Assembly (NCBI GenBank): GCA_021814545.1
Contig: JAKAID010000003.1
Span: forward strand, 1 to 40,421
Origin: a bacterium
GTDB taxonomy: Bacteria > Patescibacteriota > Minisyncoccia > UBA6257 > GWB1-50-10
Reading direction: 5' to 3'
DNA length: 40,421 nucleotides
Below are positions 7,262 to 35,239 of the stretch, one piece after another. Position 1 is the stretch's first letter; every line of letters starts with the position of its first letter. The translations under genes were made by a program, and so were the position numbers. The notes under the pieces were generated by a model, which saw nothing but the letters and a program-made list of their open reading frames with translations, had not been told where the DNA came from and ran no database searches.

Positions 7262-8949
7262 ATGAGAATTTCTGCCTGATTCTTCAGGTTCTTCAGAAGC
7301 GACATATCCTTCGCTTTGAGCTGCTCCAAAATCTTCATCTCCGGGTCTATCGCGATAGTCTTTCCGAAATATTGGCCGGAGGTAAGGTGCGGGAACAGGA
7401 CATAGTCCGCGCCCGCGTGGTAGAGCGCTTCTGCGTCGCGTTCCGTTTCCGCGCGCACAACAAGCTTCGGACGTTTTTCATGGTGCTTCATTGCCGCAAT
7501 AAGCGCGCGGTTGTCCTCATAATCAGGGCTCGTTGAAATAACGAGCTCCGCCTCGCTCATAAAGGGCGAGGAAAAAATCTCAGGGTCCGCGATATCGCCA
7601 AATACATGGTGATACCCGCCCCGCTTCAACTTCTTCACTTTCTCCGGGTCAAACTCGACGACGAGAAGCTTCTCGCGCGGCAAACCCATCGCGATGCTCT
7701 CCCCTACGCGGTGGAATCCAATGAGCACGATGGGAAACTTCTTTTCGTGGTCAACACTCCACTGTTCCGCGCTCTTTGCGCGTTCAAAGATAACGAGCCC
7801 GCGGCGCAGGAACCGGTAGATAGAATCACCGAACTGTATCATGTACGACGAGGTCACAATGGTGACGACGCCCACCGCGGTCATAAGCGAAAGTATATTA
7901 AGATCGATGTGCCCCACCGCCACGCCGAGGGTCAGCAGCACAAGGCTGAACTCCGATATCTGGGCCATCGTCATGCTTGTCATAAAGGACGTCCGCTTCC
8001 GGTATCCCATAAGCCCCATAAGCGTCATTACAATAAGCGGCTTTGCGAGCAGTACGAAAAGCGAGAATGCAAGGACCGGCAGCGCAAGCCCGCTCAAGTT
8101 CGCGAATGCCGCCTTGGCGCCTAATACCACGAAGAACGCGATAAGGAAAAAGTCGCGGAGGGGCTTAATGCGCTGCGCGATCTGGTGGTGCTCTGATGAG
8201 TTCGCAAGCGCAATACCCGCGAGGAACCCCGCTATCTCGACCGAGAATCCAATACGGGAAACGGCCGCGGCGACCGTGAATACCCACGCAAGACTCACCA
8301 GGAAGAGAAGTTCGTGTGACTGCGCGACGCGGTCGAATATCGCGGGGAGCACCTTGCGCCCGAGGTAGAGCATCACAATAAAAAGCGCGATGCCCTGAAG
8401 CACCGTGAGTCCCACGGCAACCGGCGATACCGCTTCTCCGCGCTGGATGCCCGAGAGCACCACGAGCACGAGTATCGCCACAAGGTCCTGCACAAGGAGC
8501 ATGCCTACGCTTATCTTCCCGTAAAGACTGTTCAAATCCCGCTTGTCGGAGAGGAGCTTCACCACGATAATCGTGCTCGAGAATGAGAGCGCGAGGGCAA
8601 CGTAGGCCGAAGCCATCGGCGCAAAACCGAACGCATGCGCGAGCACATACCCCGCACCGAACGTGAGCAGCAGCTGTGTAAGCCCCACGATGACCGATGC
8701 GCGCCCCACAAGCCTAAAGGTCGTGTAATCTATCTCGAGACCGACTAAGAACAGGAGCAGCATGCTCCCGAGCGCGGAAAATGTTTCAAAGGTTTCATTG
8801 CCGCCCACCGAAATAAACCCGAATGCGCCGATAAGCAACCCCGTCGCCAAATATGCGAGAATGGTCGGCTGGCGGAGTAATTTCGCCACCACGCCGAACG
8901 CGGCGCCTATCAGCACCACCATCGCTAAGTCAAATATCGCGTTCGTCAT
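7258..8949 (-). CDS. Kef-type monovalent cation:proton antiporter with a C-terminal TrkA-N (NAD-binding) domain
   Basis: An approximately 390-aa polytopic Na+/H+-exchanger-like domain is followed by VLIGFHRVGESI (a Rossmann-type motif) and a soluble tail. Length is 563 aa. Confidence 0.85.
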   Translation of the reverse strand: MTNAIFDLAMVVLIGAAFGVVAKLLRQPTILAYLATGLLIGAFGFISVGGNETFETFSALGSMLLLFLVGLEIDYTTFRLVGRASVIVGLTQLLLTFGAGYVLAHAFGFAPMASAYVALALSFSSTIIVVKLLSDKRDLNSLYGKISVGMLLVQDLVAILVLVVLSGIQRGEAVSPVAVGLTVLQGIALFIVMLYLGRKVLPAIFDRVAQSHELLFLVSLAWVFTVAAAVSRIGFSVEIAGFLAGIALANSSEHHQIAQRIKPLRDFFLIAFFVVLGAKAAFANLSGLALPVLAFSLFVLLAKPLIVMTLMGLMGYRKRTSFMTSMTMAQISEFSLVLLTLGVAVGHIDLNILSLMTAVGVVTIVTSSYMIQFGDSIYRFLRRGLVIFERAKSAEQWSVDHEKKFPIVLIGFHRVGESIAMGLPREKLLVVEFDPEKVKKLKRGGYHHVFGDIADPEIFSSPFMSEAELVISTSPDYEDNRALIAAMKHHEKRPKLVVRAETERDAEALYHAGADYVLFPHLTSGQYFGKTIAIDPEMKILEQLKAKDMSLLKNLKNQAEILI

Positions 8950-9032: not shown

Positions 9033-9434
9033 TTACTCCTCTGTAGTTTTGCCATCAAACTCGTCGCCCGTATCCGCCATCGCTTCCGCCTTCGTCGCGT
9101 GCACCTTCCCGTCGATGTGTTCTGGAGGAGAATATACCGTGTAGAGCTTCATCGCGCGCGTCGCTGAACCGTTCACGACATTGTGCTTCGTTCCTGCGGG
9201 CACCACGATGGCCGAACCATCCCGAATTGGCGTGCTCACGCCATTTAATATCGCGAAGCCTTCGCCCTCTTCGATGCGTAAAAATTGGTCAAGGTGGTGG
9301 ACCTCCTCGCCTATCTCCTCTTTTGGTTTTAACGCCATCAGCACAAGCTGGCTGTTCTTCGCCGTGTAGAGCACCTTCCTAAAATACTCGTTCTCCCGCG
9401 CCATCTTCTCAATATCAGCGATAAATCCTTTCAT
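9033..9434 (-). CDS. Cupin-domain protein
   Basis: GEEVHHLDQFLRIEEGEG ... VPAGTKHNVVN matches the two cupin motifs. Length is 133 aa. Confidence 0.85.
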   Translation of the reverse strand: MKGFIADIEKMARENEYFRKVLYTAKNSQLVLMALKPKEEIGEEVHHLDQFLRIEEGEGFAILNGVSTPIRDGSAIVVPAGTKHNVVNGSATRAMKLYTVYSPPEHIDGKVHATKAEAMADTGDEFDGKTTEE

Positions 9435-9540
9435 ATTATCGACAATTTATTTTAGTGTTTTTTTCTCTCTTCTACGGAAAAAACTACCGCGAGTTTTATG
9501 AGACTTTTCAGCATTACCTCAATTTATATTCTAACATATC

Positions 9541-9566
9541 AAAAACGCGCAGCTTTGCTGCGCGTT
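9541..9566 (-). terminator. Rho-independent terminator closing the tRNA-Ala locus
   Basis: AACGCGCAGC (9544-9553) pairs with GCTGCGCGTT (9557-9566). A T5 run follows on the minus strand. Confidence 0.7.
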
Positions 9567-9570
9567 ATCG

Positions 9571-9740
9571 TTTGTGGACCTGGCGAGAAGCGAACGTCGC
9601 TCGTCCGCAACGAACTCGCTCCCACGAACCCGGCGGTTCGTGTGCTCCGCCACGGGGAAACTCCCGTTTCCCCGACCCCCTTCCCGTTCGATTCTCTCTT
9701 GCCTCAAAACAGCAACCCGCCATTTGGCGGGGTTGTTTTG
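9571..9740 (-). repeat. tRNA 3'-flank element, copy E1 (downstream of tRNA-Ala)
   Basis: On the minus strand, in order, the element contains:
- a terminator-like hairpin (9714-9734);
- an inverted copy of the tRNA-Ala T-arm (plus-strand GTTCGATTCTC, 9686-9696);
- the motif AAGGGGGTC;
- hairpin GGGGAAAC/GTTTCCCC (9654-9673);
- hairpin CACGAACC/GGTTCGTG (9623-9642);
- the motif GGACGAGCGAC;
- a direct copy of the tRNA 3' end plus flank (9571-9595, matching 9737-9761 at 24 of 25 nt). Confidence 0.8.
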
Positions 9741-9811
9741 TGGACCTGGCGAGAATCGAACTCGCGACTCGGCAATGCGAATGCCGCGTAATACCACTTT
9801 ACTACAGGCCC
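9741..9811 (-). tRNA. tRNA-Ala (anticodon CGC), no encoded CCA
   Basis: Manual cloverleaf: GGGCCTG TA GTAA AGTGGTA TTAC G CGGCA TTCGCAT TGCCG AGTC GCGAG TTCGATT CTCGC CAGGTCC A. The G3:U70 Ala identity pair is present. Confidence 0.92.
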
Positions 9812-9887: not shown

Positions 9888-10574
9888 CTACAATACCCTC
9901 ACCATTGTAGCGATTTTTTTTGATTTTACAATGTGCGTCTCCTCCCCCGCCTCGAGCTCAATGTATTCGCTCTGATTGTCCGCATAGACGACCGCGGGAC
10001 CGCGCACCACGTGGAGCGTTATCTTTCGTTCGTCGGTAAGCACCATGTGGTCGAGCTGCTCAGTCGAGTTGTTGAAGGCGAGCCCGATACCCACCTCAAA
10101 AAAGCTGTCCGCGATGGAGCGGTAGTAGCCGGTCGAGCCGAGCGGCGTTGCCGCGACGATGCCGTCGCCGATTATCTCGCCCGCGCCCTGTCGCACTCCA
10201 TCAATCGAGAGCGTGTAGCGCATCGCGTGGCGCGGGTCCTTATTGTGCACCACGATGTCGTTCACTCCGTAGAGCGTCTTCCCCTTCGCGCGACATTCAA
10301 GCTTCTCTATCTCGATTTTCTTAAATTTTTTTTCTCTGAGGCGCGCTATCACCACCTCATTCGAGAGGGGTGGGCAGAGCTTGCACACGCGGCTGTCGCG
10401 GAGCATAAGCTTCGGAATCCCTGGGTGGGCATGTTCGGCATGGAGAAAGGTTCCATCGCCGCCATAACACACCACAAGGTCGGGGTCTTTTTCGACGAGT
10501 GTGAGGCCTGCGTTGTGGAGCAGCGCATACGCTTCGTGCTTGTTATTCCCGAATATGAGCGCTTTTTTGAACAT
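9888..10574 (-). CDS. nadK: NAD+ kinase
   Basis: The GGDGTFL motif and NDIVVHN are present. The start is set at the ATG at 10574 (MFKKALIFGNN), which is preceded by TATACT at 10592-10587. The ORF-track TTG start at 10628 would run into the tRNA-Pro flank element. Confidence 0.85.
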   Translation of the reverse strand: MFKKALIFGNNKHEAYALLHNAGLTLVEKDPDLVVCYGGDGTFLHAEHAHPGIPKLMLRDSRVCKLCPPLSNEVVIARLREKKFKKIEIEKLECRAKGKTLYGVNDIVVHNKDPRHAMRYTLSIDGVRQGAGEIIGDGIVAATPLGSTGYYRSIADSFFEVGIGLAFNNSTEQLDHMVLTDERKITLHVVRGPAVVYADNQSEYIELEAGEETHIVKSKKIATMVRVL

Positions 10575-10629: not shown

Positions 10630-10822
10630 ACGCAGCTCGGTCACCGCAAAAGACCCCCTTCCTGTTCAATTCCCACAACGAGTCGGGGCAGAGTTCTGCT
10701 GAACTCTGCACTCCGTCGCTCCCGTTCCTCCGCTGCACGGGAATTGAACAGTACTCTGTTCAATTCCCACAACGACATGGATACACAAAGACCTCCGCCA
10801 AGCGGAGGTCTTTGTGTATTTG
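10630..10822 (-). repeat. tRNA 3'-flank element, copy E4 (downstream of tRNA-Pro; compound)
   Basis: The element contains:
- a 16-bp hairpin (10783-10798 pairing with 10802-10817);
- a 13-bp palindrome GGGAATTGAACAG-TACT-CTGTTCAATTCCC (10739-10768);
- an exact 20-nt direct repeat CTGTTCAATTCCCACAACGA (10662-10681 and 10756-10775) that mimics the tRNA-Pro T-arm in inverted orientation;
- a hairpin at 10688-10709;
- GGGAATTGAACAGGAAGGGGGTC and GTGACCGAGCTG (tRNA strand), shared with the other copies. Confidence 0.75.
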
Positions 10823-10893
10823 TCGGGCTGCTGGGAATTGAACCCAGTCTACACGCACCCGAAGCGTGCGTACTACCGGTATACTACAGCCCG
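10823..10893 (-). tRNA. tRNA-Pro (anticodon CGG), no encoded CCA
   Basis: Manual cloverleaf: CGGGCTG TA GTAT ACCGGTA GTAC G CACGC TTCGGGT GCGTG TAGA CTGGG TTCAATT CCCAG CAGCCCG A. C1:G72 and G37 are typical of bacterial tRNA-Pro. Confidence 0.9.
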
Positions 10894-11005: not shown

Positions 11006-12508
11006 CTATTTCACATAGTACTTCTTCTTCATCTCTTCTTCAACCCCCGACTCGAATTCTTCCTTTTGCTCCTTTGCATGAAGCGCTTTCGTTTCAAGCT
11101 CCGCGTCGTCGAGGAGATTCAACTCTTTCGCGCGGTTACCGAGATATTCTGCCTCGTTCTTTGCGGGGTCGACGAGCACGTCGTCCAACAGCACTGCGAG
11201 AATGTTCCCTACCCGCTTGCTCGGCTTGATGTTGAGGAGCTTCATTAACTCATTGCCGTCGAGCTTCAACATTTTGGGGCTAATAGGGTCGTTCTTCACC
11301 TTCTCAATCATGAAAAGGAGATGGCGAAGTTTGTAGGGAAAGGCCTTAGGCACGCCCGAACCGATGCGGTCTGCTTCGCGCACTTGCAGCAGGTCATCCA
11401 CGTTCTCGGGACCCACGCGGCTCAAGAAGCGGCGCACCCCCGACTCCGTCACCTCGCCCACGTTGTAATAGAAAAGGTGACAGCGCACGAGATGCGTCAC
11501 GCGCTCCGCGATGTCGCGCGGGAACTTTAACCGATCCATGATCTTCAGCGTCATCTTTGCGCCCACCACCTCGTGGTTGTAGAACGTAGAATCGGGGCCC
11601 TCCCCTCCTTTCGTGCGCGGCTTCCCCACGTCGTGCAAGAGTGAGGCGAGGCGCACCACGAGCGAGTACTCTTTCTCCACTGTGTAGTTCAAGGCGCGTA
11701 CGTTGTGGTCGAACACCGAATAGATGTGGTGCTTGTTCTGCCCCACCCCAAGCCCTTCGCGCAGTTCGGGCATTACGTATTTCAAAAGACCCAAGTCCTC
11801 CATTTCGATAATGCCTGCGGCGGCGCGCGGCGTCATCACGAGTTTTATGAACTCATCGCGGATGCGCTCTTTTGCAATAGCCTCGAGAAGCCCCGCGCTC
11901 GCCTTTATTGCCTCGCGCGTCTCGTGTTCGACTGCAAACTCGAGCTGTGCGGCGAACCGCACCGCGCGCATGAGACGCAGCGCGTCTTCCTCGAATCGTT
12001 CGCGTGCGTTACCTACCGTGCGAAGTATCTTTTTCTCGAGGTCTTCCATGCCGTTGTGGGGGTCTACGAGGTGCGACTTCGTAAGCCGTGCACTCGATAA
12101 ATTGAACGCCATCGCGTTCACGGTAAAGTCGCGGCGCGAGAGGTCGTCTTCTATCGTCTTTGCGAACTGCACCTCATCCGGATGGCGCTTGTCGGAGTAG
12201 GCACTCTCCGTGCGAAAGGTGGTTACCTCCACAATCTTTAACGTCTCATCTTCCGCCGTGGTTTTTATCGCTACCGTGCCGAACGTATTCTCGTATACCG
12301 TTGCGGGGTCCTCTCTCGTGCGCCCGCCGAAGTTATAAAAAAGCTCCTGCACCTTGTCAGGCGTTGCGTTCGTCGCGATATCCCAATCTTTCGGCGTAAC
12401 GCCGAGGAGCATATCGCGCAGGCAGCCGCCCACGAGATACGTCTCAAAACCCGCGTCAGAAAGTATGCGCGCGATAGATTCGACTTCCGAAGGAATCTTC
12501 GTCTTCAT
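11006..12508 (-). CDS. cca: CCA-adding tRNA nucleotidyltransferase with HD domain
   Basis: The motifs GGCLRDMLLG, DWDIAT and an HD-type LHDVGKP are present. Length is 500 aa. Confidence 0.9.
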   Translation of the reverse strand: MKTKIPSEVESIARILSDAGFETYLVGGCLRDMLLGVTPKDWDIATNATPDKVQELFYNFGGRTREDPATVYENTFGTVAIKTTAEDETLKIVEVTTFRTESAYSDKRHPDEVQFAKTIEDDLSRRDFTVNAMAFNLSSARLTKSHLVDPHNGMEDLEKKILRTVGNARERFEEDALRLMRAVRFAAQLEFAVEHETREAIKASAGLLEAIAKERIRDEFIKLVMTPRAAAGIIEMEDLGLLKYVMPELREGLGVGQNKHHIYSVFDHNVRALNYTVEKEYSLVVRLASLLHDVGKPRTKGGEGPDSTFYNHEVVGAKMTLKIMDRLKFPRDIAERVTHLVRCHLFYYNVGEVTESGVRRFLSRVGPENVDDLLQVREADRIGSGVPKAFPYKLRHLLFMIEKVKNDPISPKMLKLDGNELMKLLNIKPSKRVGNILAVLLDDVLVDPAKNEAEYLGNRAKELNLLDDAELETKALHAKEQKEEFESGVEEEMKKKYYVK

Positions 12509-12528: not shown

Positions 12529-12676
12529 TGTGCCCCCGGAGGGATTTGCCCCGCGCCTCTCGGTCGCGTCGTCACGCTCCCTCGGGCTGGGCATCGCCTC
12601 GCGTCCCTCGGTACTCCTCGGGACATGCTCCGGCGGTTCAAATCCTCACGCGAAACGCTCAAGCGTTTCGCTCGTG
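12529..12676 (-). repeat. tRNA 3'-flank element, copy E3 (downstream of tRNA-Arg)
   Basis: The element contains:
- a hairpin GCGAAACGC/GCGTTTCGC (12650-12671);
- an inverted copy of the tRNA-Arg T-arm (plus-strand GGTTCAAATCCTC, 12635-12647);
- the motif GCGACCGAGAGG;
- an exact 20-nt direct copy of the tRNA 3' end plus flank (12529-12548, identical to 12675-12694). Confidence 0.8.
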
Positions 12677-12748
12677 TGCCCCCGGAGGGATTTGAACCCC
12701 CAATAACAGGTTCGAAGCCTGTCGTGATATCCGTTTCACTACAGGGGC
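12677..12748 (-). tRNA. tRNA-Arg (anticodon TCG), no encoded CCA
   Basis: Manual cloverleaf: GCCCCTG TA GTGA AACGGATA TCAC G ACAGG CTTCGAA CCTGT TATTG GGGGG TTCAAAT CCCTC CGGGGGC A. Confidence 0.9.
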
Positions 12749-12771
12749 GCACCTCCATTCAAACACACGCA

Positions 12772-12799
12772 TTGCCAATATGCAAAAAATTGGTATACT
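12772..12799 (+). promoter_or_regulatory. Sigma70-like promoter for tRNA-Lys: TTGCCA, 16-nt spacer, TATACT
   Basis: The -35 is at 12772-12777 and the -10 at 12794-12799. The tRNA starts at 12817. Confidence 0.5.
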
Positions 12800-12816
12800 A
12801 ATGTTCGTTATTCGAG

Positions 12817-12888
12817 GCCCCTATAGCTCAACGGTAGAGCAGCTGCCTCTTAAGCAGTTGGTTCTAGGTTCAAATCCTAGTGGGGGCA
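12817..12888 (+). tRNA. tRNA-Lys (anticodon CTT), no encoded CCA
   Basis: Manual cloverleaf: GCCCCTA TA GCTC AACGGTA GAGC A GCTGC CTCTTAA GCAGT TGGTT CTAGG TTCAAAT CCTAG TGGGGGC A. Confidence 0.92.
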
Positions 12889-12915
12889 CAAGTGAGTGAA
12901 ATAAAGCACTGACCC

Positions 12916-13063: not shown

Positions 13064-15181
13064 ATGGTGGAACTCCACACCCCGCTCTCCCGCATCGATG
13101 GCATCCAGACACGCTTCCTTCCTAAACTGAAAAAACTCGGCATCGAAACGGTGCGCGACCTCCTGTGGCACTTCCCTGTCCGCTATGAGGACTTCTCCCA
13201 TGTCTTTACGATAGAAGAGTTGAACCCGGGCGAGGAGGTTACCATCACCGCGACCGTCGAATCAATTAAAAGCCGCAATACCTGGCGGCGTTCGCTTTTT
13301 TTGGTCGAGGCGGAACTCTCCGACCACACGGGCACTATTCGCGCGACCTGGTTCAACCAGCCCTACATTAAAAACGTGCTCCAGCCCGGCCGCATGGCGA
13401 ACTTTGCCGGGAAAGTGGTTGCTTCAAAAAAGAGCGGCGAACTCTATCTCTCGAATCCTACCTATGAGCTCGTTTCCGCACACGCACACCACGAGACGAA
13501 GCACACCGCGCGCATCGTGCCCGTCTATTCGGAAACGCGCGGCCTTACCTCGAAGGGTATTCGCTACCTTATCCAGCCGATTTTAAAACGCCTGCCGCAT
13601 ATTCCCGAGCTCTTCCCCGAAGCAGTGCTCCGCGCACAGCATATTCCGGAAATAAATGAGGCACTCGCGAATATTCACTTCCCCGAGAATATCGATGACG
13701 CGCTTGCCGCGCGCCGCCGCTTCGCCTTTGAAGACCTTTTCTTCCTTCAGCTCACGACCGCACTTCAACGGCGCACGCTTGCTGCAAAAACCGCGCCCTC
13801 TATCCCTACGGATATCCCCCTTATAAAGTCACTCATCGAGGCGCTTCCCTTCGCGCTCACCGAATCACAGAAACGCTCGCTCTGGGAAATCCTCAAAGAC
13901 CTCGCACGACCCCACCCTATGAACCGTATTCTCCAGGGAGACGTCGGCTCGGGAAAAACGGTCATTGCGGGGCTTGCCGCGTATGCGGCCGCTGCGCATG
14001 GCCACCAGGCCGCCTTTATGGCGCCGACTGAAATTCTTGCGCGTCAGCACTACCTCACCTTCAATAAACTTTTCCCGAATTATGAGCACGGCGTGGCACT
14101 CCTCACTGCAGGTGAAACGCGCATCTCTTACGGAAACGGTCTTGAATCAATCATTGCGAAACCATCGCTTCTCAAAGAAATCACCTCGGGGAAGATTCGC
14201 ATCGTAGTTGGTACCCACGCGCTTATTCAAAAGTCGGTCGCCTTCCGTTCCCTCGCCCTTGTCGTCGTCGACGAACAACACCGCTTCGGTGTACGCCAGC
14301 GCGCCGCGCTCGAAGAAGCAGGGGGGTCGACGCCCCACTTCCTCTCGATGTCCGCAACTCCCATCCCCCGCACACTCTCGCTCACCCTTTTTGGCGATCT
14401 CGACCTCTCCCTCATCACTGAATTACCGAAAGGCCGGAAGCCCATCAAAACGCGGGCCGTCCTTCCCGAGGAGCGTGTGCAGGCGTACCAGTTCATTCGC
14501 GACGAGATAGTATCGGGGCGCCAGGCATTCGTTATCTGCCCGCGCATTGAAAAGCCCGAAGAACCTACGGACCGCGCCACCCTCATTGCGCGCGAAGTAA
14601 AATCGGTCAAAGAAGAATACGCGCGCCTCTCGCGTGAGCTATTCCCCGACCTCACGGTCGCCATGCTCCATGGCAAAATGAGCGCAAAAGAAAAGGCGTC
14701 CGTGATGCACGCCTTCCAGAAAAACGAAACGAATATTTTGGTCGCCACCTCGGTCATTGAGGTCGGCGTTGATGTGCCGAACGCGACCATCATGATGATA
14801 GAGGGCGCCGAACGGTTCGGACTTGCCCAGCTCTATCAGTTCAAGGGACGCGTGGGGCGGGGTGCCCACCAATCATACTGTCTCCTCTTTGCCGCCTCGC
14901 CCTCCGCCGCAACACGCACCCGCCTCAAGGCAATCGTCGAGGCAAGGAACGGCTTTGAGCTTGCCGAGATGGACCTCAAGCTCCGGGGGCCTGGTGAATT
15001 CCTCGGTGAGGCACAGACCGGTATGCCCGACCTCGCGATGAAAGCCATCCAGAACCCCGACCTCGTAAAACACGCGCATGAGGCGGCGCGCGAACTTTTG
15101 AATAACGACCCTACCCTTAAGCGGAATCCCGAAATACGTATGCACCTCGAGGAATTCCGCAAGAGCGTTCACTGGGAATAA
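13064..15181 (+). CDS. recG: ATP-dependent DNA helicase RecG
   Basis: An N-terminal wedge/OB region is followed by Walker A DVGSGKT and DEQHRFG, then helicase C motifs. Length is 705 aa. Confidence 0.95.
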   Translation: MVELHTPLSRIDGIQTRFLPKLKKLGIETVRDLLWHFPVRYEDFSHVFTIEELNPGEEVTITATVESIKSRNTWRRSLFLVEAELSDHTGTIRATWFNQPYIKNVLQPGRMANFAGKVVASKKSGELYLSNPTYELVSAHAHHETKHTARIVPVYSETRGLTSKGIRYLIQPILKRLPHIPELFPEAVLRAQHIPEINEALANIHFPENIDDALAARRRFAFEDLFFLQLTTALQRRTLAAKTAPSIPTDIPLIKSLIEALPFALTESQKRSLWEILKDLARPHPMNRILQGDVGSGKTVIAGLAAYAAAAHGHQAAFMAPTEILARQHYLTFNKLFPNYEHGVALLTAGETRISYGNGLESIIAKPSLLKEITSGKIRIVVGTHALIQKSVAFRSLALVVVDEQHRFGVRQRAALEEAGGSTPHFLSMSATPIPRTLSLTLFGDLDLSLITELPKGRKPIKTRAVLPEERVQAYQFIRDEIVSGRQAFVICPRIEKPEEPTDRATLIAREVKSVKEEYARLSRELFPDLTVAMLHGKMSAKEKASVMHAFQKNETNILVATSVIEVGVDVPNATIMMIEGAERFGLAQLYQFKGRVGRGAHQSYCLLFAASPSAATRTRLKAIVEARNGFELAEMDLKLRGPGEFLGEAQTGMPDLAMKAIQNPDLVKHAHEAARELLNNDPTLKRNPEIRMHLEEFRKSVHWE

Positions 15182-18582: not shown

Positions 18583-18659
18583 TGCGGGGGAGAGCGGTCC
18601 GGTTGCTCGTCAGGCTCATAACCTGAAGGCCATGGGTTCGAATCCCATCCCCGCAACCA
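18583..18659 (+). tRNA. tRNA-Met (anticodon CAT), initiator-like, with encoded CCA
   Basis: Manual cloverleaf: TGCGGGG GA GAGC GGTCCGGTT GCTC G TCAGG CTCATAA CCTGA AGGCC ATGGG TTCGAAT CCCAT CCCCGCA A CCA. It has A11:U24 (a bacterial initiator hallmark), a weak U1:A72 pair, and two of the three initiator G:C pairs at the base of the anticodon stem. Confidence 0.85.
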
Positions 18660-18667
18660 GTTTTCAT

Positions 18668-18740
18668 GGCGGAGTAGCTCAGTGGTTAGAGCGAGCGCTT
18701 CATAAGCGTTAGGTCGTGGGTTCGATCCCCACCTCCGCCA
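18668..18740 (+). tRNA. tRNA with anticodon CAT (elongator Met or lysidine-dependent Ile2), no encoded CCA
   Basis: Manual cloverleaf: GGCGGAG TA GCTC AGTGGTTA GAGC G AGCGC TTCATAA GCGTT AGGTC GTGGG TTCGATC CCCAC CTCCGCC A. The G1:C72 and C11:G24 pairs are elongator-type. Confidence 0.88.
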
Positions 18741-18743
18741 CCC

Positions 18744-19190
18744 ATGACCGAGGCACAGCAACAAAAAATTATACGCCTCGCGCGTTCCCTCGTCGGAGCT
18801 CCTTATGTTTATGGCGCGGAAGCGAATGCGCCGCACACGTTCGACTGCTCCTCCTTTACGCAATACGTATTCAAAGGCGCAGGCATCGAATTGCCGCGCA
18901 GCAGCATTTTGCAGGCCGCGGACGGGCACGGAACCGAACTTGCCGTGAGTAACGACCCCTCGCACTACGCGCCAGGGGACCTCCTTTTTATGCGCGGTGT
19001 GCGCGGCTTCTACCGCGACAGCCTTTTCGAAGGTCGTGAGGTTTCTATCGGCCATGTCGGTATCTACCTCGGCACGGAAGAGATAGCGCACGCCCAGGCG
19101 CACCGCGAACCGAATGGTGTCGTTATCCAAAACCTCTCTGAACTTACGCGTGACCCGCACTACGCAATTATTTTTGCCAAGCGGTTCTGA
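18744..19190 (+). CDS. NlpC/P60 (C40) family peptidase
   Basis: The catalytic-Cys context FDCSSFTQYVF and a downstream IGHVGIYLG (His) are present. Length is 148 aa and no signal peptide is evident. Confidence 0.8.
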   Translation: MTEAQQQKIIRLARSLVGAPYVYGAEANAPHTFDCSSFTQYVFKGAGIELPRSSILQAADGHGTELAVSNDPSHYAPGDLLFMRGVRGFYRDSLFEGREVSIGHVGIYLGTEEIAHAQAHREPNGVVIQNLSELTRDPHYAIIFAKRF

Positions 19191-19740: not shown

Positions 19741-19814
19741 GCGGTGGTAGCTTAGTTGGTTAAAGCGCCGCCCTGTCACGGCGGAGATCGAGGGTTCAAG
19801 TCCCTTCCACCGCG
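19741..19814 (+). tRNA. tRNA-Asp (anticodon GTC), no encoded CCA
   Basis: Manual cloverleaf: GCGGTGG TA GCTT AGTTGGTTA AAGC G CCGCC CTGTCAC GGCGG AGATC GAGGG TTCAAGT CCCTT CCACCGC G. Confidence 0.92.
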
Positions 19815-19992
19815 CAACAAAACAAGAAATCCCACGTTTGTGGGATTTTTTGTTTTTTGTGGAGGGGACTTGAACAAAGAAAGGGGTCGGGGAAACATTT
19901 GTTTCCCCGTGGCGGAACATACAAACCGAGGGGTTTGTGAACGCAGACCGCTTGGGCGACCGAGCAGTGAAATTCCCTTCCACCGCGCAACA
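19815..19992 (+). repeat. tRNA 3'-flank element, copy E2 (downstream of tRNA-Asp)
   Basis: The element contains:
- a terminator hairpin (19827-19848) plus T-run;
- an inverted copy of the tRNA-Asp 3' part (19859-19875, complementary to 19794-19810 at 16 of 17 positions);
- the motif AAAGGGGTC;
- hairpin GGGGAAAC/GTTTCCCC (19889-19908);
- hairpin ACAAACC/GGTTTGT (19921-19938);
- the motif GCGACCGAGCAG;
- an exact 19-nt direct copy of the tRNA 3' end plus flank (19974-19992, identical to 19801-19819). Confidence 0.85.
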
Positions 19993-20032
19993 CAAAACAC
20001 CCATAAGAGTGTTTTTTTATATGCGCAATGCG

Positions 20033-24910: not shown

Positions 24911-25528
24911 TTATTGAGGGCATGACGACCAGTTGGCGAAGCGCGCAAGCCAGCCGACCGGACATAGGCTTGTTTCAGATATGTCGCTCGGCAACACGCG
25001 CGAGCTTACCGTGGTCTCAAGATTGGCCGCCCGTCCCTCAACTTCAAGATTTCTCGGCGAAATATTGCCGATAATCGTAATACGCCACGGATTCTTCGGC
25101 GAGCCCCCCTGGTCAACGCGAAAACAGGCGCGATTCGCCGCAACATCGGGCGAGGTGACAGGAACCGTGTTTCCCATCTCTTCCGTGCGCTCGAGCGTGC
25201 TTGAGGTTCTATTCCACTCGTAAACCACGACCGTGGTCGTGGTACCGCGAAAACGGCGGAACGCGACGCCGGTCGCAAAATCGGGAAGCGCCGCAGAACA
25301 TGGTACGGATGAGGTCGTAAAATTATATCCAAGGCGAAGTTCGCGCGACATCTGCTCGAACATGAGGCCCGTATTACTGCTCGCTTCGATGACCGCGCCT
25401 AAAATTTTTTGCGTATGGATCGTCTGGATGAAAAGCCCCCCGATGATGGACATTGCGATAGAGAATACCGAGAGCGCCACGAGGAGCTCTACGATGGTAA
25501 ACCCGGCGTTGCGTTCGTTATGTTCCAT
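24911..25528 (-). CDS. Minor (pseudo)pilin with a prepilin-type N-terminal methylation motif
   Basis: The start is the ATG at 25528. The prepilin motif NAG|FTIVELLVALSVFSI is present. It may be PilW/GspJ-like, with low certainty. Confidence 0.75.
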   Translation of the reverse strand: MEHNERNAGFTIVELLVALSVFSIAMSIIGGLFIQTIHTQKILGAVIEASSNTGLMFEQMSRELRLGYNFTTSSVPCSAALPDFATGVAFRRFRGTTTTVVVYEWNRTSSTLERTEEMGNTVPVTSPDVAANRACFRVDQGGSPKNPWRITIIGNISPRNLEVEGRAANLETTVSSRVLPSDISETSLCPVGWLARFANWSSCPQ

Positions 25529-25529
25529 G

Positions 25530-26042
25530 TTATTGGCGCCAATTGTAGAACCGGTCCTCAACAACGATATTCTCCATGTCCGCCGAGCGCACGGTCGAGC
25601 TCACGCTCACCGCATACACCTTTCCCGACGCGGGGTCAGTAAGCGGCGTCGTCGTAATATCACGGATAAAACCGCTCGAAATGGCGCCCGGAAGCGCGTT
25701 ATACGAGTACGCTCCGTTCCGGTAGAGCAGCGGATTTCCGTTCTGAATAGTGATGGGGGCATTCGTGTCATAACTCACTTGGAAGGTGAAGGGATTCGGC
25801 GGAAAACCGTTCGTCCATGAGGCGCCGGTCGCAAAATTCGTATCGAGCATATTACGTACTATCTCGATGCCCTCCGCCGCAAGGTGCGCGCCCACAAGCC
25901 TGCGGTCGACTATGCTGTTGTAATGAAGCGAACTCGTCACAAGCGAGAGCGAGGAAAGAAGCGCGGTGATCGCCACGCTGATGCCCACGATCGACTCGAT
26001 CATGATCTGGCCTTCGTTATGGTTGTTGCGCTTTTTTGTCAT
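25530..26042 (-). CDS. Minor pilin-like protein with a non-canonical processing motif (G|QIMIE)
   Basis: NEG|QIMIESIVGISVAITALL has Gly at -1 and Glu at +5, but Gln instead of Phe or Met at +1. Confidence 0.6.
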   Translation of the reverse strand: MTKKRNNHNEGQIMIESIVGISVAITALLSSLSLVTSSLHYNSIVDRRLVGAHLAAEGIEIVRNMLDTNFATGASWTNGFPPNPFTFQVSYDTNAPITIQNGNPLLYRNGAYSYNALPGAISSGFIRDITTTPLTDPASGKVYAVSVSSTVRSADMENIVVEDRFYNWRQ

Positions 26043-26647
26043 CGCGTAGAAACCTGTCCTCCTGCGGTGATCGACGTATCGCTGTATCCCCCGCTCAAAC
26101 CCGCAAGCCGCACCACGAGCGGGAATGCCCCGTTCGAAATCGCGCTCAAGTCCGGCGGCACGAAAAGAATGTCCGCTCCCCCGCTCTTAATGGACATTGC
26201 GAGCTGATCATCGATCGACACCTCATCTATCATTTCATTCGGACCGTTATAATACTCGCCCGCTGCGGAAAGCGAAGGGGAATAGGTGCCGTCGGCGTTG
26301 AGACAGGTATAAATGGTCGTCGTCGCCTTGATGTCTTCAAAAATAACTGCCTTCCTTGCCGCGGCATCAAAATGCACTCCGAATGCGCAAGCAAAACTGC
26401 CGCTCGGCACATTCTTGCCGATAAAACGCTCCGCGGCGTACGACTTCGCGCGATTCACCGCGCCCACGATAAGCGCCTGCGCTTTGAAAATGCGGAGCTG
26501 GTCTTCTGATGAATGATTGTAGGTGATCGAAATGCCGGTAATCATCGCGATTATCGCGGTTGCCACAATAACATCAAGCAAAGAAAAGCCGCGCCGCGAA
26601 TGTATTCGTTCTTTTGCTTTTGCCCATATCGCACGCACGCATTGCAT
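26039..26647 (-). CDS. Minor pilin-like protein (G|FSLLD motif)
   Basis: RRG|FSLLDVIVATAIIAMITG has Asp rather than Glu at +5. The arrangement is GspH/FimT-like. Confidence 0.65.
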   Translation of the reverse strand: MQCVRAIWAKAKERIHSRRGFSLLDVIVATAIIAMITGISITYNHSSEDQLRIFKAQALIVGAVNRAKSYAAERFIGKNVPSGSFACAFGVHFDAAARKAVIFEDIKATTTIYTCLNADGTYSPSLSAAGEYYNGPNEMIDEVSIDDQLAMSIKSGGADILFVPPDLSAISNGAFPLVVRLAGLSGGYSDTSITAGGQVSTR

Positions 26648-26656
26648 ATCTCTCTT

Positions 26657-26662
26657 ATTATA
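26657..26662 (-). promoter_or_regulatory. -10 box TATAAT 9 nt upstream of the ATG at 26647 (internal promoter for the minor-pilin/ligA block)
   Basis: The minus strand reads CTCTGTATAATAAGAGAGAT-ATG. It lies in a 123-nt gap after pilD. Confidence 0.4.
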
Positions 26663-26770
26663 CAGAGGAAGTATCTAAAAAAGAACTTCGCCTATTGCGT
26701 CGAGTGAGGAGCGTGCGGACAAGTACCCTTGTACCCATCGTCCGAACGATGACGGAACAAGGTTCTTACC

Positions 26771-27676
26771 TTATAGGCGGAACATCCCGAAATATGCGCT
26801 CAATATTGAATGGCCGAAAAAGAAGACGAGTACAAGGCCCAATACAAAGAACGGCGCGAACGGTATCTTGTCTTTCATGTGCATATTCCGCATGAGGAGC
26901 AGCCCCACGCTCACCACGCCGCCCACGATGAATGAGAGCATTATCGCAAGCCCGATGTCCGGCCAACCGAACGCGGCACCGGCGGCAAGCGCAAGCTTCA
27001 CGTCGCCGAATCCTATCCCCCTCCCCTTTGTAATGATGCTAAGAAGCAGGAAAAATCCGGCCCCTAATACCGCGCCAAGAATATGGTTCGCCGCGATGCT
27101 CCGGAACGGAGAAAAGAGCAGCACATATTGTTGTAAAAATGACTCGCGGAACGGCAGGGTAATACCGTCCGCACGCAACGAGAGCAATGCGGCGACCCCT
27201 ATGCCGACAAGCCCCAGGAGAATGTTCAGCTCATCGGGAATGAGATAGTGCCGAAGGTCAATAACCGCGATAAGGAGCAGTATGAAAAAAATGACGACCC
27301 ACCCCGCGAGCACGCCGTAATACCAAGGGGGCGCATGAAGCGCAAAGAAGGTCGCCGAGGAAACGCCGAAAAACGAATTTAAAAAATACGGCACGCCTGA
27401 GAAAATGGCGCCACCCGCAAGCTCCACAAGCGGGTATTGCATGGTAAGCGCCACGCCACACTCGCGGCACCTCCCCCGCTGTACCGCATAGCTCATGACC
27501 GGAATAAGCTCATACCAATGAAGCGTTCGCCCGCACTGCATGCAATGCGAACGACCCGAAAGGCTCGGGCCGGAGAACACGTTTCGGTCGGGGTCGTAGC
27601 GGAGGATGAGCACATTCGAGAAGCTCCCCAGCGCAAGACCGAGCACGAACAGCAATATGTAATATAACGTAACCAT
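26771..27676 (-). CDS. pilD: Prepilin peptidase (A24 family)
   Basis: An N-terminal Cys cluster CMQCG...CRECG and the Asp motifs IPDELN and GFGDVKL are present. The start is the ATG at 27676, overlapping the pilin stop (TAATG). Confidence 0.9.
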   Translation of the reverse strand: MVTLYYILLFVLGLALGSFSNVLILRYDPDRNVFSGPSLSGRSHCMQCGRTLHWYELIPVMSYAVQRGRCRECGVALTMQYPLVELAGGAIFSGVPYFLNSFFGVSSATFFALHAPPWYYGVLAGWVVIFFILLLIAVIDLRHYLIPDELNILLGLVGIGVAALLSLRADGITLPFRESFLQQYVLLFSPFRSIAANHILGAVLGAGFFLLLSIITKGRGIGFGDVKLALAAGAAFGWPDIGLAIMLSFIVGGVVSVGLLLMRNMHMKDKIPFAPFFVLGLVLVFFFGHSILSAYFGMFRL

Positions 27677-28122
27677 TACGATCCCACGCTTACGCAATAC
27701 GCATTCGCCGCATCGCACGTACACTGCGGAGGCGGCTCAAGCCTGCTCCCTTGCGGGCTCACATCATAGTTCGCCGCGTCGGGGCGCGCATAGCTCTGTA
27801 TTTCTGCGGGGCGGATATTCTCAAGACACGTTCCCAGCACGTATGTGTTCGAATTCACGCGAATATATCCGTAATTCCCTCCCTGCGGGTCAATAGGAAG
27901 TTCGGGTATCGCCGTATAGAGCTCGTCCGTCTTCGGATACGCCCTTGCGGACGAATAAAATGTTTCCAATCCGTTCTGAATTTGCCGCAGGTCCGCAATG
28001 CGGCGCGCATCACGCGCGCGCCGCCGTGCGTCGCTAAGCCCCACAAGTATGGTAGAGGAAAGCAATCCGATGATCGCTACCACTACCAACATCTCTATCA
28101 ATGTGAAGCCTGAGCGTTTCAT
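27676..28122 (-). CDS. Type IV pilin (prepilin-type N-terminal cleavage/methylation domain)
   Basis: MKRSG|FTLIEMLVVVAIIGLLSS is a short leader followed by the canonical motif. Length is 148 aa. Confidence 0.9.
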   Translation of the reverse strand: MKRSGFTLIEMLVVVAIIGLLSSTILVGLSDARRRARDARRIADLRQIQNGLETFYSSARAYPKTDELYTAIPELPIDPQGGNYGYIRVNSNTYVLGTCLENIRPAEIQSYARPDAANYDVSPQGSRLEPPPQCTCDAANAYCVSVGS

Positions 28123-28132
28123 GGGCTAATAA

Positions 28133-28531
28133 TTACTGAGCGCTCGTCTTGCAGAAATAATAAATTCTTCCTCCTCCGGTGCAACTCCCTGCCCACTGGC
28201 TGCACGCCGCGATAGGCGCTGCCGCTGCTCCATTCTCCTGCGTTTCCATGCAGGCCATCGCCGCCGATGAGGTCGCCCCGCCGGCATAGAAATAATCCTC
28301 GCCCTGCGGACCCTTGCCCGCTGTCATTGGTGCGAGTGTCAATGGATATCCCGTCACGCCAAATTGGACCTCCGCGGAATTCATAATCTGCTGGATATCC
28401 GCCAAACGCTTCGCATCACGCGCTTTCTGACGCGCACCGCTCAACCCCACCACCACCACCGAGCTCAAAAGACCAATGATCGCTACTACCACAAGCATTT
28501 CAATAAGAGTGAAACCCTGTCTGTTATTCAT
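28133..28531 (-). CDS. Type IV pilin, probable major pilin
   Basis: The start is the ATG at 28531 (MNNRQG|FTLIEMLVVVAIIGLLSS). It has its own TATAAT at 28594-28589 just downstream of the pilC stop. Length is 132 aa and the C-terminal part contains 4 Cys. Confidence 0.85.
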   Translation of the reverse strand: MNNRQGFTLIEMLVVVAIIGLLSSVVVVGLSGARQKARDAKRLADIQQIMNSAEVQFGVTGYPLTLAPMTAGKGPQGEDYFYAGGATSSAAMACMETQENGAAAAPIAACSQWAGSCTGGGRIYYFCKTSAQ

Positions 28532-28588
28532 GATTTTGGTATTGTATTCGTGTTTTTGTTCGTATGACCGACCTTTTGTGTTTCCATT

Positions 28589-28594
28589 ATTATA
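28589..28594 (-). promoter_or_regulatory. -10 box TATAAT upstream of the 28531 pilin gene (5' UTR of about 50 nt)
   Basis: The minus strand reads AATAGTGTATAATAATGG, located between the pilC stop (28602) and the pilin start. Confidence 0.45.
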
Positions 28595-28601
28595 CACTAT
28601 T

Positions 28602-29807
28602 CTATATCGAATTCGTGAGGCTATAGAGCGGGAGGAGAATGGCGGCGAAGAGACCCGCGACCATGACGCCGATAACCACAAGAAGCGCGGGCTGGATAAG
28701 CTCAACAAGGTTCGAGACTTTGTCGTCTACCTGGCGGCTGTAGTAGTCGCTTATTTTTGAAAGCAATATCTCGAGGCGGCCGGTGGATTCCCCCACCGCA
28801 ATAAGCTGGCCCACGAGCGGGGGAAAATACGGCGCATCCTTTAACGCTTGCGAAAGGAGCTGGCCCTTTCTGATATTCTGTGCCGTTTCGTGCAAAATAT
28901 CGCGGTAGACGTAATTGCCGATGGTGTGCGAAGAAATTTCCACCGCCTGCGGAATAGTGAGGCCGCCCTGAATGAGCACCTTAGTCGATTCCGCAAAACG
29001 CGCAAGATACAAGAACTGGAAGAGGGTGCCGAAAACAGGCAGCCGCAAACTTATCTCGTCGACTATCGCCTTACCCTCTGCAGTCTGCATGTAATCAATA
29101 AAGAGCACGATAGAAACGACCGCAACAATGAGCATGACCCACCAATAGCCTTGGAGGAAGGTGCTCAGGGCGATGATGACTTTCGTGATGGCGGGAAGCT
29201 CCACCTTTGATTCGGTGAATATCGGCATCATTTGCGGAAGCACCATCGTCATCATAACGAACACCACGACAATGAAGAGGCCGATGACGAATGCGGGGTA
29301 GATGAGCGCGTTGCGGAGCTTGCCTAAGAGGATGGACTGCTTCTCAAGATAGTCCGCGAGGAAGTCCAAGACCTCGCTCAAGCGCCCTGTCACTTCGGCG
29401 GATTTCACCATGTTCACATAAAACTCGGAGAACACGCCCGGGTGGCGCCCCAGCGCCTGCGAAAGCGAGAAGCCGGAGTCGATATCCGAAGAGATTTCTG
29501 TGATGATTTCCTTTAATACTGGCCGCGTCGTCTGCGCGTAGAGGCTCCGCAAGCTATCCCCCACGGGCACCTGGGAAGAAAGGAGGGTTGCGAACTGGCG
29601 CGTGAATATCATGATATCCATCATCTTCACCCGCTCGAAGAAGTTCGCGAGACGAACGAGCATCGAATCCTCTTTGATGGGCTCGATACTCAACACGAAG
29701 AGCTCATGGCCAAGCAAAATAGCCGCAGCCGCATCGCGCGTGGCCGCCTCTACGTTGCCCACTTGGAGCTCTCCTTCTTTTGTGCGCGCCTTGTAGTTAA
29801 ACTTCAT
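28602..29807 (-). CDS. pilC: Type IV pilus platform protein (GspF/PilC family)
   Basis: 401 aa with a duplicated T2SS-F-type domain organisation and three hydrophobic segments. Confidence 0.9.
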   Translation of the reverse strand: MKFNYKARTKEGELQVGNVEAATRDAAAAILLGHELFVLSIEPIKEDSMLVRLANFFERVKMMDIMIFTRQFATLLSSQVPVGDSLRSLYAQTTRPVLKEIITEISSDIDSGFSLSQALGRHPGVFSEFYVNMVKSAEVTGRLSEVLDFLADYLEKQSILLGKLRNALIYPAFVIGLFIVVVFVMMTMVLPQMMPIFTESKVELPAITKVIIALSTFLQGYWWVMLIVAVVSIVLFIDYMQTAEGKAIVDEISLRLPVFGTLFQFLYLARFAESTKVLIQGGLTIPQAVEISSHTIGNYVYRDILHETAQNIRKGQLLSQALKDAPYFPPLVGQLIAVGESTGRLEILLSKISDYYSRQVDDKVSNLVELIQPALLVVIGVMVAGLFAAILLPLYSLTNSI

Positions 29808-29817
29808 CCTTCAATTC

Positions 29818-29823
29818 ATTATA
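29818..29823 (-). promoter_or_regulatory. -10 box TATAAT 10 nt upstream of the pilC ATG (29807)
   Basis: The minus strand reads GGTGCGGTATAATGAATTGAAGG-ATG. Confidence 0.35.
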
Positions 29824-29836
29824 CCGCACCGCCCCC

Positions 29837-30910: not shown

Positions 30911-30917
30911 AGGTTCT

Positions 30918-32651: not shown

Positions 32652-32669
32652 AGGGTAATGCGCTGCGTC

Positions 32670-32966
32670 CTAATACGCCCGGAAGGGGTTATCCCTGCCC
32701 GAGGGAGGGAGGACGAGCGGCGCACTGTAGTCTTTCAACTGCATAAAGCTCGGCGAGTTCACCACCGTTGAGGGGCTGAATTGCTTCAGCTGGGTCAACT
32801 GGTTCAACTCCTGCAGCCGCGGCGGCGTACCGATCTCCGCGAGGAGCTGCGGCTGGGTGAAGAAGAGATAGTACGCGCCCGCGAACGCGATGCCCACGAA
32901 CACGACGATAGAGATTATCGTTATCCAATTCGTCGGCTTTTTTTCTTGTTCAATAACGATGGCCAT
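32670..32966 (-). CDS. Small single-TM protein in the pilus operon, with a C-terminal GRDNPF motif
   Basis: 98 aa with the TM helix WITIISIVVFVGIAFAGAYYLFF. The C-terminal ...PPSGRDNPFRAY recalls the (R/K)(D/N)PF motif of PilP-like proteins, a weak resemblance. Confidence 0.55.
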   Translation of the reverse strand: MAIVIEQEKKPTNWITIISIVVFVGIAFAGAYYLFFTQPQLLAEIGTPPRLQELNQLTQLKQFSPSTVVNSPSFMQLKDYSAPLVLPPSGRDNPFRAY

Positions 32967-32968
32967 AG

Positions 32969-33526: not shown

Positions 33527-33529
33527 GGG

Positions 33530-35208: not shown

Positions 35209-35239
35209 TTTATCACAGTCGGTGCGCGCGCTATCATGA

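Follow-up and report, generated by a model that had tools for sequence, protein, structure and literature searches.

What kind of DNA leaves both an inverted and a direct copy of a tRNA's own 3' end just downstream of that tRNA? The question is raised by the trailer of a tRNA-Ala gene (positions 9571 to 9740) in a stretch of 40,421 nucleotides, hereafter the window, from a bacterium of the Patescibacteriota (GTDB lineage Minisyncoccia; UBA6257; GWB1-50-10; GenBank assembly GCA_021814545.1, contig JAKAID010000003.1, positions 1 to 40,421). We put the chances at about even that this trailer is a copy of a widespread and apparently undescribed family of protein-less insertions of ~130 to 250 bp that home to conserved gene ends in Patescibacteria. 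The family is best read as a new kind of guide-bearing, non-autonomous homing or insertion element that fails the defining tests of each class it resembles. Throughout, I denotes the inverted copy of the tRNA T-loop and T-stem, D the direct copy of the tRNA 3' end, T' the replacement gene end, which at a tRNA comprises everything from the T-loop on together with the terminator hairpin that belongs to it, and 'a' the first bases of T', which are paired by I. The elements at tRNA-Ala, tRNA-Asp, tRNA-Arg, and tRNA-Pro are called E1, E2, E3, and E4, and other loci are referred to by L numbers where they have to be told apart.

The seven tRNA genes that ARAGORN and Rfam predict for the window have the coordinates given in the initial annotation, and direct reading of the trailers confirmed that four of the seven (Ala, Pro, Arg, and Asp) are followed by the hairpin, I, core, and D which that annotation had described. 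The elements at tRNA-Ala and tRNA-Asp, which share one core type (type A), are composed as follows.

9741-9811, minus strand: tRNA-Ala(CGC), host gene of E1 (ARAGORN, Rfam)
9751-9761, minus strand: segment 'a' of E1, the T-loop and 3' T-stem of tRNA-Ala, which pairs with I
9706-9739, minus strand: terminator-like hairpin 1 of E1 (stem 9716-9731), the top of the long T':I hairpin
9686-9698, minus strand: inverted copy I of E1, the putative internal guide, of which 11 nt (9686-9696) are the exact complement of 9751-9761
9595-9685, minus strand: whole core of E1, between I and D
9617-9685, minus strand: type-A core of E1, with J1 GGGAAGGGGGUC, P2 at 9654-9673, J2 GUGGCGGAG, and P3 at 9623-9642
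9595-9622, minus strand: 3' module of E1 (J3, P4), with the right end ...GAGCGACG
9571-9594, minus strand: direct copy D of E1, which starts in the T-loop and is taken to be the original tRNA 3' end after displacement; over 9571-9589 (19 nt) it equals the tRNA-Ala 3' end with 4 nt of flank
9544-9566, minus strand: terminator-like hairpin 2 after the D of E1, from terminator prediction
19741-19814, plus strand: tRNA-Asp(GTC), host gene of E2, with segment 'a' at 19794-19809 (ARAGORN, Rfam)
19819-19856, plus strand: terminator-like hairpin 1 of E2, from direct reading and folding
19860-19875, plus strand: inverted copy I of E2, which pairs with 19794-19809 or alternatively with D
19876-19973, plus strand: type-A core of E2 (76.5 bits), with P2 at 19889-19908, P3 at 19921-19938, GGUC pairing with GACC, P4 as GCUUGG-GCGA-CCGAGC, and the right end GAGCAGUGAAAU
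19974-19992, plus strand: direct copy D of E2 (19 nt, exact)
About 19993-20019, plus strand: terminator-like hairpin 2 after the D of E2

A covariance model run on the window finds full cores only at 9617-9687 (minus strand, 81 bits) and 19875-19945 (plus strand, 76.5 bits), besides a weak core remnant at 10634-10665 (minus strand, 11 bits). The claim that the Ala and Asp copies share a core, with a compensatory change in its second hairpin, was correct, and the window contains these two type-A cores together with one decayed type-A core (Pro) and one of a second type, type B (Arg). Relatedness of all four cores, as first proposed, consequently extends to the type-A remnant at tRNA-Pro but not to the Arg core. 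The Pro copy does carry the inverted repeat, even twice, but lacks a clean distal direct copy and the core hairpins, and the shared motif GACCGAG says little by itself, with 12 matches in the window versus 6.6 expected. The two other elements read as follows.

12529-12674, minus strand: E3, 3' of tRNA-Arg(TCG) (12677-12748), with hairpin 1 at 12649-12674
12635-12647, minus strand: inverted copy I of E3
12549-12634, minus strand: type-B core of E3
12529-12548, minus strand: direct copy D of E3 (20 nt, exact)
10635-10817, minus strand: E4, a decayed composite 3' of tRNA-Pro(CGG) (10823-10893), with hairpin 1 at 10783-10817
10757-10775 and 10663-10681, minus strand: two identical inverted copies of E4 (19 nt)
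10729-10750, minus strand: partial and degraded direct copy of E4
10652-10662, then 10635-10649, minus strand: type-A remnant of E4, GGAAGGGGGTC followed by TTGCGGTGACCGAGC

Is this layout a property of tRNA genes? A metagenome search with a degenerate type-A core pattern returned at least 120 stretches, and the type-A cores collected from the metagenome matches listed and from related loci number 146, which is a lower bound. In 76 of them, a tRNA from one of 18 isoacceptor families or a tmRNA ends within the 200 nt before the core. Another 56 show no tRNA although their upstream flank reaches 200 nt or more, and in 14 the flank is too short for classification, which leaves 56 non-tRNA copies among the 132 with a sufficient flank. 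Those non-tRNA copies that were inspected have the same layout at the ends of protein genes, namely at the 3' end of rpsI (five loci), of rpsG, and of rplR and, as antisense copies, at the 5' ends of translational GTPase genes at their AHVD codons (four loci), of a glycosyltransferase gene, and of an unannotated gene (L150). Elements therefore lie in both orientations relative to the host gene. The general order is T', then I complementary to 'a', then the core, and then D as the displaced former end of the gene, with a median distance of 71 nt between T' and the core and a duplication of 15 to 64 nt, and T' always completes the host gene with its own stop or start codon. T' and D need not be identical: the rpsI end WSKR* of L146 is written TGGAGCAAGAGATAA in T' and TGGTCTAAACGATAA in D, and the first 17 codons of fusA in L125 differ synonymously between the two, while ~70 nt of rplR are duplicated in L089. 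Because these copies spell the same peptide with different codons, T' and D can derive from different lineages rather than from local duplication and drift; which of the two is the resident copy is legible only where they differ.

Some type-A cores stand without I, T', and D, either exactly between two tRNA genes (L153 1254-1340, L084 1365-1520, and L117 275-370) or directly upstream of a tRNA 5' end (L183 4335-4420), and tRNA processing of a polycistronic transcript would free such tRNA-flanked cores as discrete RNAs. A type-A subfamily (L095 at 7357-7500, L096, L099, L108, L149, and L162) has a conserved right end, GAGAGGGCGAGCGACTAACTTGGTATTACCACT, that adjoins the downstream start codon, as in the arrangement lysS-core-serS in L095 and at gene starts in L096, L099, and L149, with no duplication evident.

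The part of the element that follows its target most closely is I. One core type is combined with many targets, and I always matches its own. Among 111 fully flanked cores, an exact complement of at least 9 nt between the 30 nt before the core and the 300 nt upstream was found in 75, compared to 0 in the reversed control. I is 9 to 19 nt long and ends 6 to 8 nt before the GGGUC of the core, and the left edge of the T'/D homology (median 24 nt) falls within -4 to +9 nt of the first 'a' base in 56 of 61 elements, with a mode of 0. Where different genomes share one target (rpsI or the AHVD site of the GTPase genes), I tracks its own T', and I:T' mismatches at such shared targets are G.U pairs (L138, L159). 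The pairing of I with the tRNA T-arm that had been noticed at the outset is real and conserved, with 15 of 16 positions complementary plus one G.U at tRNA-Asp. T' and I form one long, near-continuous hairpin with the terminator-like stem at its top, and the folding energy of this T-arm:I hairpin is -51.6 kcal/mol for Asp (z -8.8) and -38.2 kcal/mol for Ala (z -5.9). In an alternative fold of the Asp copy, pairing of I with D closes the core as a four-way junction (-58.8 kcal/mol, z -4.9); this I:D pairing is kept in 31 of the 111 elements, fewer than I:T'. D is less conserved, as in the Ala copy of L001, where D has 3 changes and the match of I to the tRNA is intact. Each junction is located where a helix formed by I would end, and the junction nucleotides are highly conserved.

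Downstream of I, the type-A core follows the order GGRAAG-GGGUC, P2, GU-NNN-GGA, P3 (..AACCG-N-GGUU..), and a 3' module with P4. Covariation of P2 and P3 was tested on 106 distinct model-aligned copies, collected with a search pattern that fixed most P2 positions and left two variable P2 pairs and all of P3 free. Standard pairs occupy 92.9% of the P2/P3 cells, compared to 76.9% after shuffling, and 14 of 16 pairs changed on both sides, compared to a shuffled mean of 8.5. The covariation score is 0.337, a value reached by 0 of 500 shuffles, versus 0.100 for shuffled alignments, and it drops to at most 0.145 when the partners are slid. Covariation, whose absence the initial annotation had counted among its refuting conditions, is strong. 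Loops in the core are mostly GNRA or C(UUCG)G, insertions of up to ~30 nt are tolerated in the P2 loop, and a type E (L065, L078) is a circular permutation in which P2 closes the structure and the cyclic order of the conserved strands is unchanged. Orthologous copies in the window and L001 are 89% and 86% identical. Compensatory changes separate them in P2 at either locus and, at the Asp locus, also in P4 and hairpin 1, and a P4 pair that is retained in both as U.G would read C.A on the opposite strand. These compensatory changes and the kept U.G indicate a constraint on the tRNA-carrying strand that acts after insertion, and the core evolves as a folded single strand. A count of G.T versus A.C in P3 could not serve as a further test of the strand, since the model alignment puts triloop variants out of register. 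Pairing of the GU-NNN-GGA strand with the P3 loop as a pseudoknot was considered and rejected; variants of the two associate, but not by a consistent Watson-Crick rule. At least four further cores are found between I and D (types B, C, and D and singletons).

Related genomes differ in where they carry the elements. The related loci comprise the surroundings of 80 homologues of the CCA-adding enzyme in Jorgensenbacteria, Paceibacteria, and other Patescibacteria, and together with the window (81 sources) they contain 258 tRNAs with enough flank for a census. A direct copy of the tRNA's own 3' end (at least 12 nt) lies downstream of 40 of the 258 and upstream of 2, an inverted copy (at least 10 nt) downstream of 39 and upstream of 8, and both are found downstream of 30 tRNAs in 21 of the 81 sources. 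Copies in this census accompany tRNAs for Ala, Pro, Arg, Asp, Lys, Met, Leu, and Gly. Many orthologous tRNA sites are empty in relatives; at the empty site of L004, a tRNA-Ala of identical sequence is followed directly by a terminator and a cupin gene. Both searches proposed in the initial annotation, for further copies in relatives and metagenomes and for empty orthologous tRNA loci, were accordingly productive, with more than 140 copies and many empty sites. Occupancy of tRNA-Arg varies from type B in the window to type A in L001, with a core nearly identical to the Ala core of the window, and to A and B in tandem in L002. Elements are also stacked in tandem in L066, and decayed copies are seen in E4 and L122.

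Several of these loci merit individual description. In L066 (3562-5875), an unusual tRNA(CAU)-like gene has the T-loop GGUCCGAGUCC and only a weak match to the tRNA-Sec model. Behind it lie two islets in tandem, ~0.9 and 1.3 kb in size, whose small ORFs have no known function; both islets close with a long hairpin followed by I, by a type-A core, and by a repeat of the tRNA(CAU)-like 3' end. L122 (minus strand) has two tandem displaced rpsI 3' ends after one core, ~90 to 190 nt downstream of core position 7024, separated by a right-end fragment, ATAGCGAAGTG, and looks like a relic of successive insertions. In L054 (minus strand), CCATTCGACTTCGCTCATGGTCTACGACAATT-like tandem repeats flank two near-identical tRNA-Pro elements, at 14860-14952 and past D at 6380-6300. 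The orientation of tRNA-Arg and tRNA-Lys relative to the gene of the CCA-adding enzyme varies among close relatives (window, Lys minus and Arg plus, 12676-12889; L001, both plus, 9383-9806; L004, 9164-9533, and most others, both minus), and inverted T-arm copies may be involved in such small inversions around element-bearing tRNAs. Within the window, none of the seven tRNA genes encodes CCA, and the gene of the CCA-adding enzyme (11006-12508, minus strand) begins 20 nt past the D of tRNA-Arg. The tRNA-Lys gene (12817-12889) and two tRNA-Met(CAT) genes located 8 nt apart (18583-18744) are element-free.

Could a gene in or near the elements account for their movement? The elements themselves encode no protein. 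The ORFs of the window are housekeeping genes and a type IV pilus cluster, with no integrase found among them, and the ORF clusters around 120 metagenome copies among the matches listed are housekeeping only (e.g., EF-G, RpoA, S9, S4, S12, and GatA); no transposase, integrase, recombinase, or reverse transcriptase recurs near these copies, and neither do TnpA, TnpB, or IscB. No promoter is predicted before the core in the tRNA copies, and no copies were found in viral contigs, phage records, or plasmid records. Rfam at permissive thresholds gave nothing meaningful for the window, for L066, or for the element alone, in agreement with the initial remark that the element was not recognized as a described motif. 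The best match, a ylbH leader at 9650-9741 (minus strand; 21.7 bits compared to a threshold of 50), was judged to be due to chance, being sub-threshold and driven by the terminator hairpin and GGGGAAAC. Compared by sequence with the consensus features of hammerhead, hairpin, twister, and HDV-like ribozymes, the core did not fit. A description of the element was not found in the literature searched, where the nearest topics are TIGR-Tas arrays, TnpB homing, and IStrons, whose anatomy does not fit.

How might such an element move? In the mechanism that we propose, I would act as an internal guide that pairs with the target and sets the insertion junction, and a strand break or exchange at this junction would fall to a trans-acting factor or to the core. 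The element would then spread together with T' into unoccupied alleles by recombination, with the conserved upstream gene as the left arm and D plus the downstream flank as the right arm; after insertion, the host gene would run from T', and D would be free to decay. The type IV pilus cluster of the window (24911-35430) comprises a pilin-like protein, prepilin peptidase, PilC, PilT, PilB, PilN, and PilM. Type IV pilus machinery is of the kind thought to be used by Patescibacteria for DNA uptake. Strains L203, L204, and L205 are 99.6% to 100% identical to the window and show clustered SNPs, with 5 in 27 nt of the NAD kinase gene (10179-10205) and 11 in 130 nt of the CCA-enzyme gene (11669-11798), that look like short recombination tracts. 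The pilus cluster and these tracts would fit a spread through DNA uptake and recombination.

Several points weigh against this reading. No catalyst was identified among the ORFs of the window or the neighbors of the 120 metagenome copies, and the proposed model offers no account of how T' and I come to fit a target that is newly occupied. The core of the tRNA copies sits between two terminator-like hairpins without a predicted promoter, so that an RNA form would depend on read-through. The excess of G.T over A.C among the I:T' mismatches (16 versus 8) is only suggestive as a test of the strand and does not settle between RNA and single-stranded DNA. The near-identical strains show no presence/absence polymorphism; all carry the elements, which are fixed and invariant except for one SNP at 10640, and mobility is inferred from deeper comparisons rather than from directly observed recent movement. 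The metagenome set was chosen by the type-A pattern, which biases both its P2 variety and its context frequencies. The copies without T', I, and D (the spacers of L153, L084, and L117, the copy in L183, and the intergenic L095 subfamily) suggest that the core may also have a stand-alone role. In L038 (700-900), finally, I and D correspond to one another and to the tRNA-Asp allele found in L048 rather than to the adjacent upstream tRNA-Asp, which indicates that the tRNA or the element was exchanged.

A bolder version of the guide-directed insertion, in which core and I are themselves a protein-free, guide-directed mobile nucleic acid or miniature "homing ribozyme," seems unlikely to us. Pairing of I with the target would place the 3' end of the core at the bond 5' of the target segment, and the core would catalyze strand breakage or joining in a manner similar to reverse splicing. 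The position of the junctions at the end of a helix that I can form, the conserved junction nucleotides, the circular permutation, and the lack of an encoded protein are compatible with it. Group I and group II introns and IStrons likewise have a short internal segment beside a folded core that pairs with the target at the junction, and they home to very conserved sites in tRNA and translation genes. Unlike group I and II introns, however, the core is only ~100 nt long, has no match to their Rfam models at E values up to 10, and comes with no reverse transcriptase or homing endonuclease; splicing is not needed, as T' restores the gene and a terminator comes after the intact tRNA, and the target segment that I pairs with is located 3' of the junction. 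The 5' HDV-like ribozyme of R2 and the bridge RNA of IS110 resemble the element in that an element RNA pairs with a flank or its own end and defines the junction, but differ by an element-encoded enzyme, another fold, and the lack of a single guide that matches both donor end and target.

We also hold it improbable that the unit is a host-beneficial cis RNA cassette, perhaps a module of 3' or 5' ends that terminates, insulates, stabilizes, or processes the transcripts of strongly expressed genes, and has spread between lineages only through ordinary homologous recombination at conserved flanks, with D as a by-product. Such a role would fit the structure that is kept in place between orthologous copies, the association with tRNA, ribosomal protein, and translation factor genes, the terminator hairpins that belong to the unit, and the exact boundaries at start codons or tRNA ends together with the duplication-free copies (L153, L084, L117, L095). 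It sits poorly with a patchy distribution and many empty orthologous sites, with tandem elements and decayed copies (Pro; L122), with insertion in both orientations relative to the host gene, and with several unrelated cores in one layout, and in a read-through transcript I would bind the T-arm and cause the tRNA to misfold.

The idea of an attL/attR-like footprint of a small element that targets tRNA 3' ends, which the initial annotation had raised, comes closest of its three readings and is partly borne out, by the direct copy of a displaced end, the empty sites, the tandem stacking, and the occurrence at 18 isoacceptor families plus tmRNA, but not in its restriction to tRNAs, as protein-gene ends are used as well, and not in the integrase, for which the window and the recurrent neighbors offer no candidate. 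That the elements are miniature attL/attR-flanked integrative elements moved in trans by a tyrosine or serine recombinase that is encoded elsewhere, with arm-type protein-binding sites in the core and an incidental I, we regard as unlikely. As in integrative and cis-mobilizable elements, insertion occurs in the 3' part of a tRNA, at the T-loop boundary, or at the end of a protein gene, which is kept intact by a replacement end that the element carries, and the original end is left as a direct repeat, which at tRNAs spans the 3' part from the T-loop on with a few further bases. Direct repeats of this extent are reported (Williams 2002) for integrases whose crossover lies in the T-loop. Accretion in tandem beside a tRNA (L002, L066) agrees with this origin, too. 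But those elements differ from the 130- to 250-bp, integrase-free units described here, a single core type of which is found at 18 isoacceptor families, tmRNA, and unrelated protein genes—dozens of unrelated targets per family—whereas integrase specificity is narrow. To the left of D there is no inverted core site resembling a T-stem, and instead of protein-binding arms there is a target-complementary I that covaries with its target and a folded core whose hairpin covariation, variable loops (with P2 insertions of up to 30 nt), and circular permutation would not arise from double-stranded protein-binding sites.

Still less probable in our view is a derivation from IS200/IS605-type (PATE-like) elements, in which the right end would be the scaffold of an omega RNA and D would guide a TnpB or IscB nuclease to cut empty sites. 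PATEs and the TnpB/IscB elements of this family are small and hairpin-rich at their ends like the elements described here, in which a structured scaffold of ~100 to 130 nt directly abuts 15 to 20 nt of target sequence and the stable mini-hairpin motif d(GCGAAGC) is common near the right end; their homing logic, i.e., maintenance and spread by recombination from the occupied copy, would fit a T' and D from different lineages. Yet no common target-adjacent motif, such as the conserved 4 to 5 nt 3' of which IS200/IS605 elements insert, is seen by eye left of the junction across tRNA, rpsI, GTPase, rpsG, and rplR targets, and in the tRNA copies D equals T, so that the guide would hit the occupied allele as well. 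Rfam has models for such element-associated RNAs (HEARO, IS605-orfB) and gives no match to the element, and TnpA, TnpB, and IscB are not recurrent near the 120 metagenome copies. The duplication of 15 to 64 nt with a replacement end contrasts with the IS200/IS605 family, which makes none, and a guide-like I complementary to the element's own left end has no counterpart there. Another proposal of the initial annotation, a MITE whose terminal repeats mimic T-arms, holds only superficially, as I and D differ from target to target and the duplication has a median of 24 nt, compared to fixed terminal repeats and 2 to 10 bp in a classical MITE.

We consider it extremely improbable that the elements are tandem tRNA genes in decay or trailers specific to tRNAs that control 3' maturation: I and D do copy parts of the tRNA, and the T-arm can be bound strongly by I, but neither ARAGORN nor Rfam finds a cloverleaf remnant, which refutes the former, the core is unrelated to tRNA, and the identical architecture at the ends of protein genes (rpsI, rpsG, rplR, and GTPase copies, in both orientations) contradicts a trailer whose defining function would be to sequester the tRNA 3' end.

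The guide-bearing insertion that we favor resembles integrative elements in its repair of the gene end, introns in the guide beside a folded core, and guide-RNA transposons in its homing logic. If this reading is true, tiny mobile elements that encode no protein form an abundant class in Patescibacteria—of seven tRNAs in the window, four are occupied, and a single metagenome pattern search gave at least 120 stretches—and they choose their insertion site by base-pairing and repair the interrupted gene with a spare end. It would account for the duplication of tRNA 3' ends and of gene termini that these reduced genomes show and would be a warning for annotation, where false "tRNA fragments" and chimeric gene ends of foreign origin would have to be expected. 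The elements would be a natural case of guide-defined DNA insertion, possibly of practical interest, whose catalyst could be a host factor, a partner protein, or RNA. Should the core itself be the catalyst, as in the homing-ribozyme version, the elements would represent a new class of catalytic RNA, or of single-stranded DNA, that is mobile and programmable via a guide of 9 to 19 nt. For the biology of these bacteria, the finding would raise the question of how selfish elements without an enzyme persist in minimal, naturally recombining genomes.

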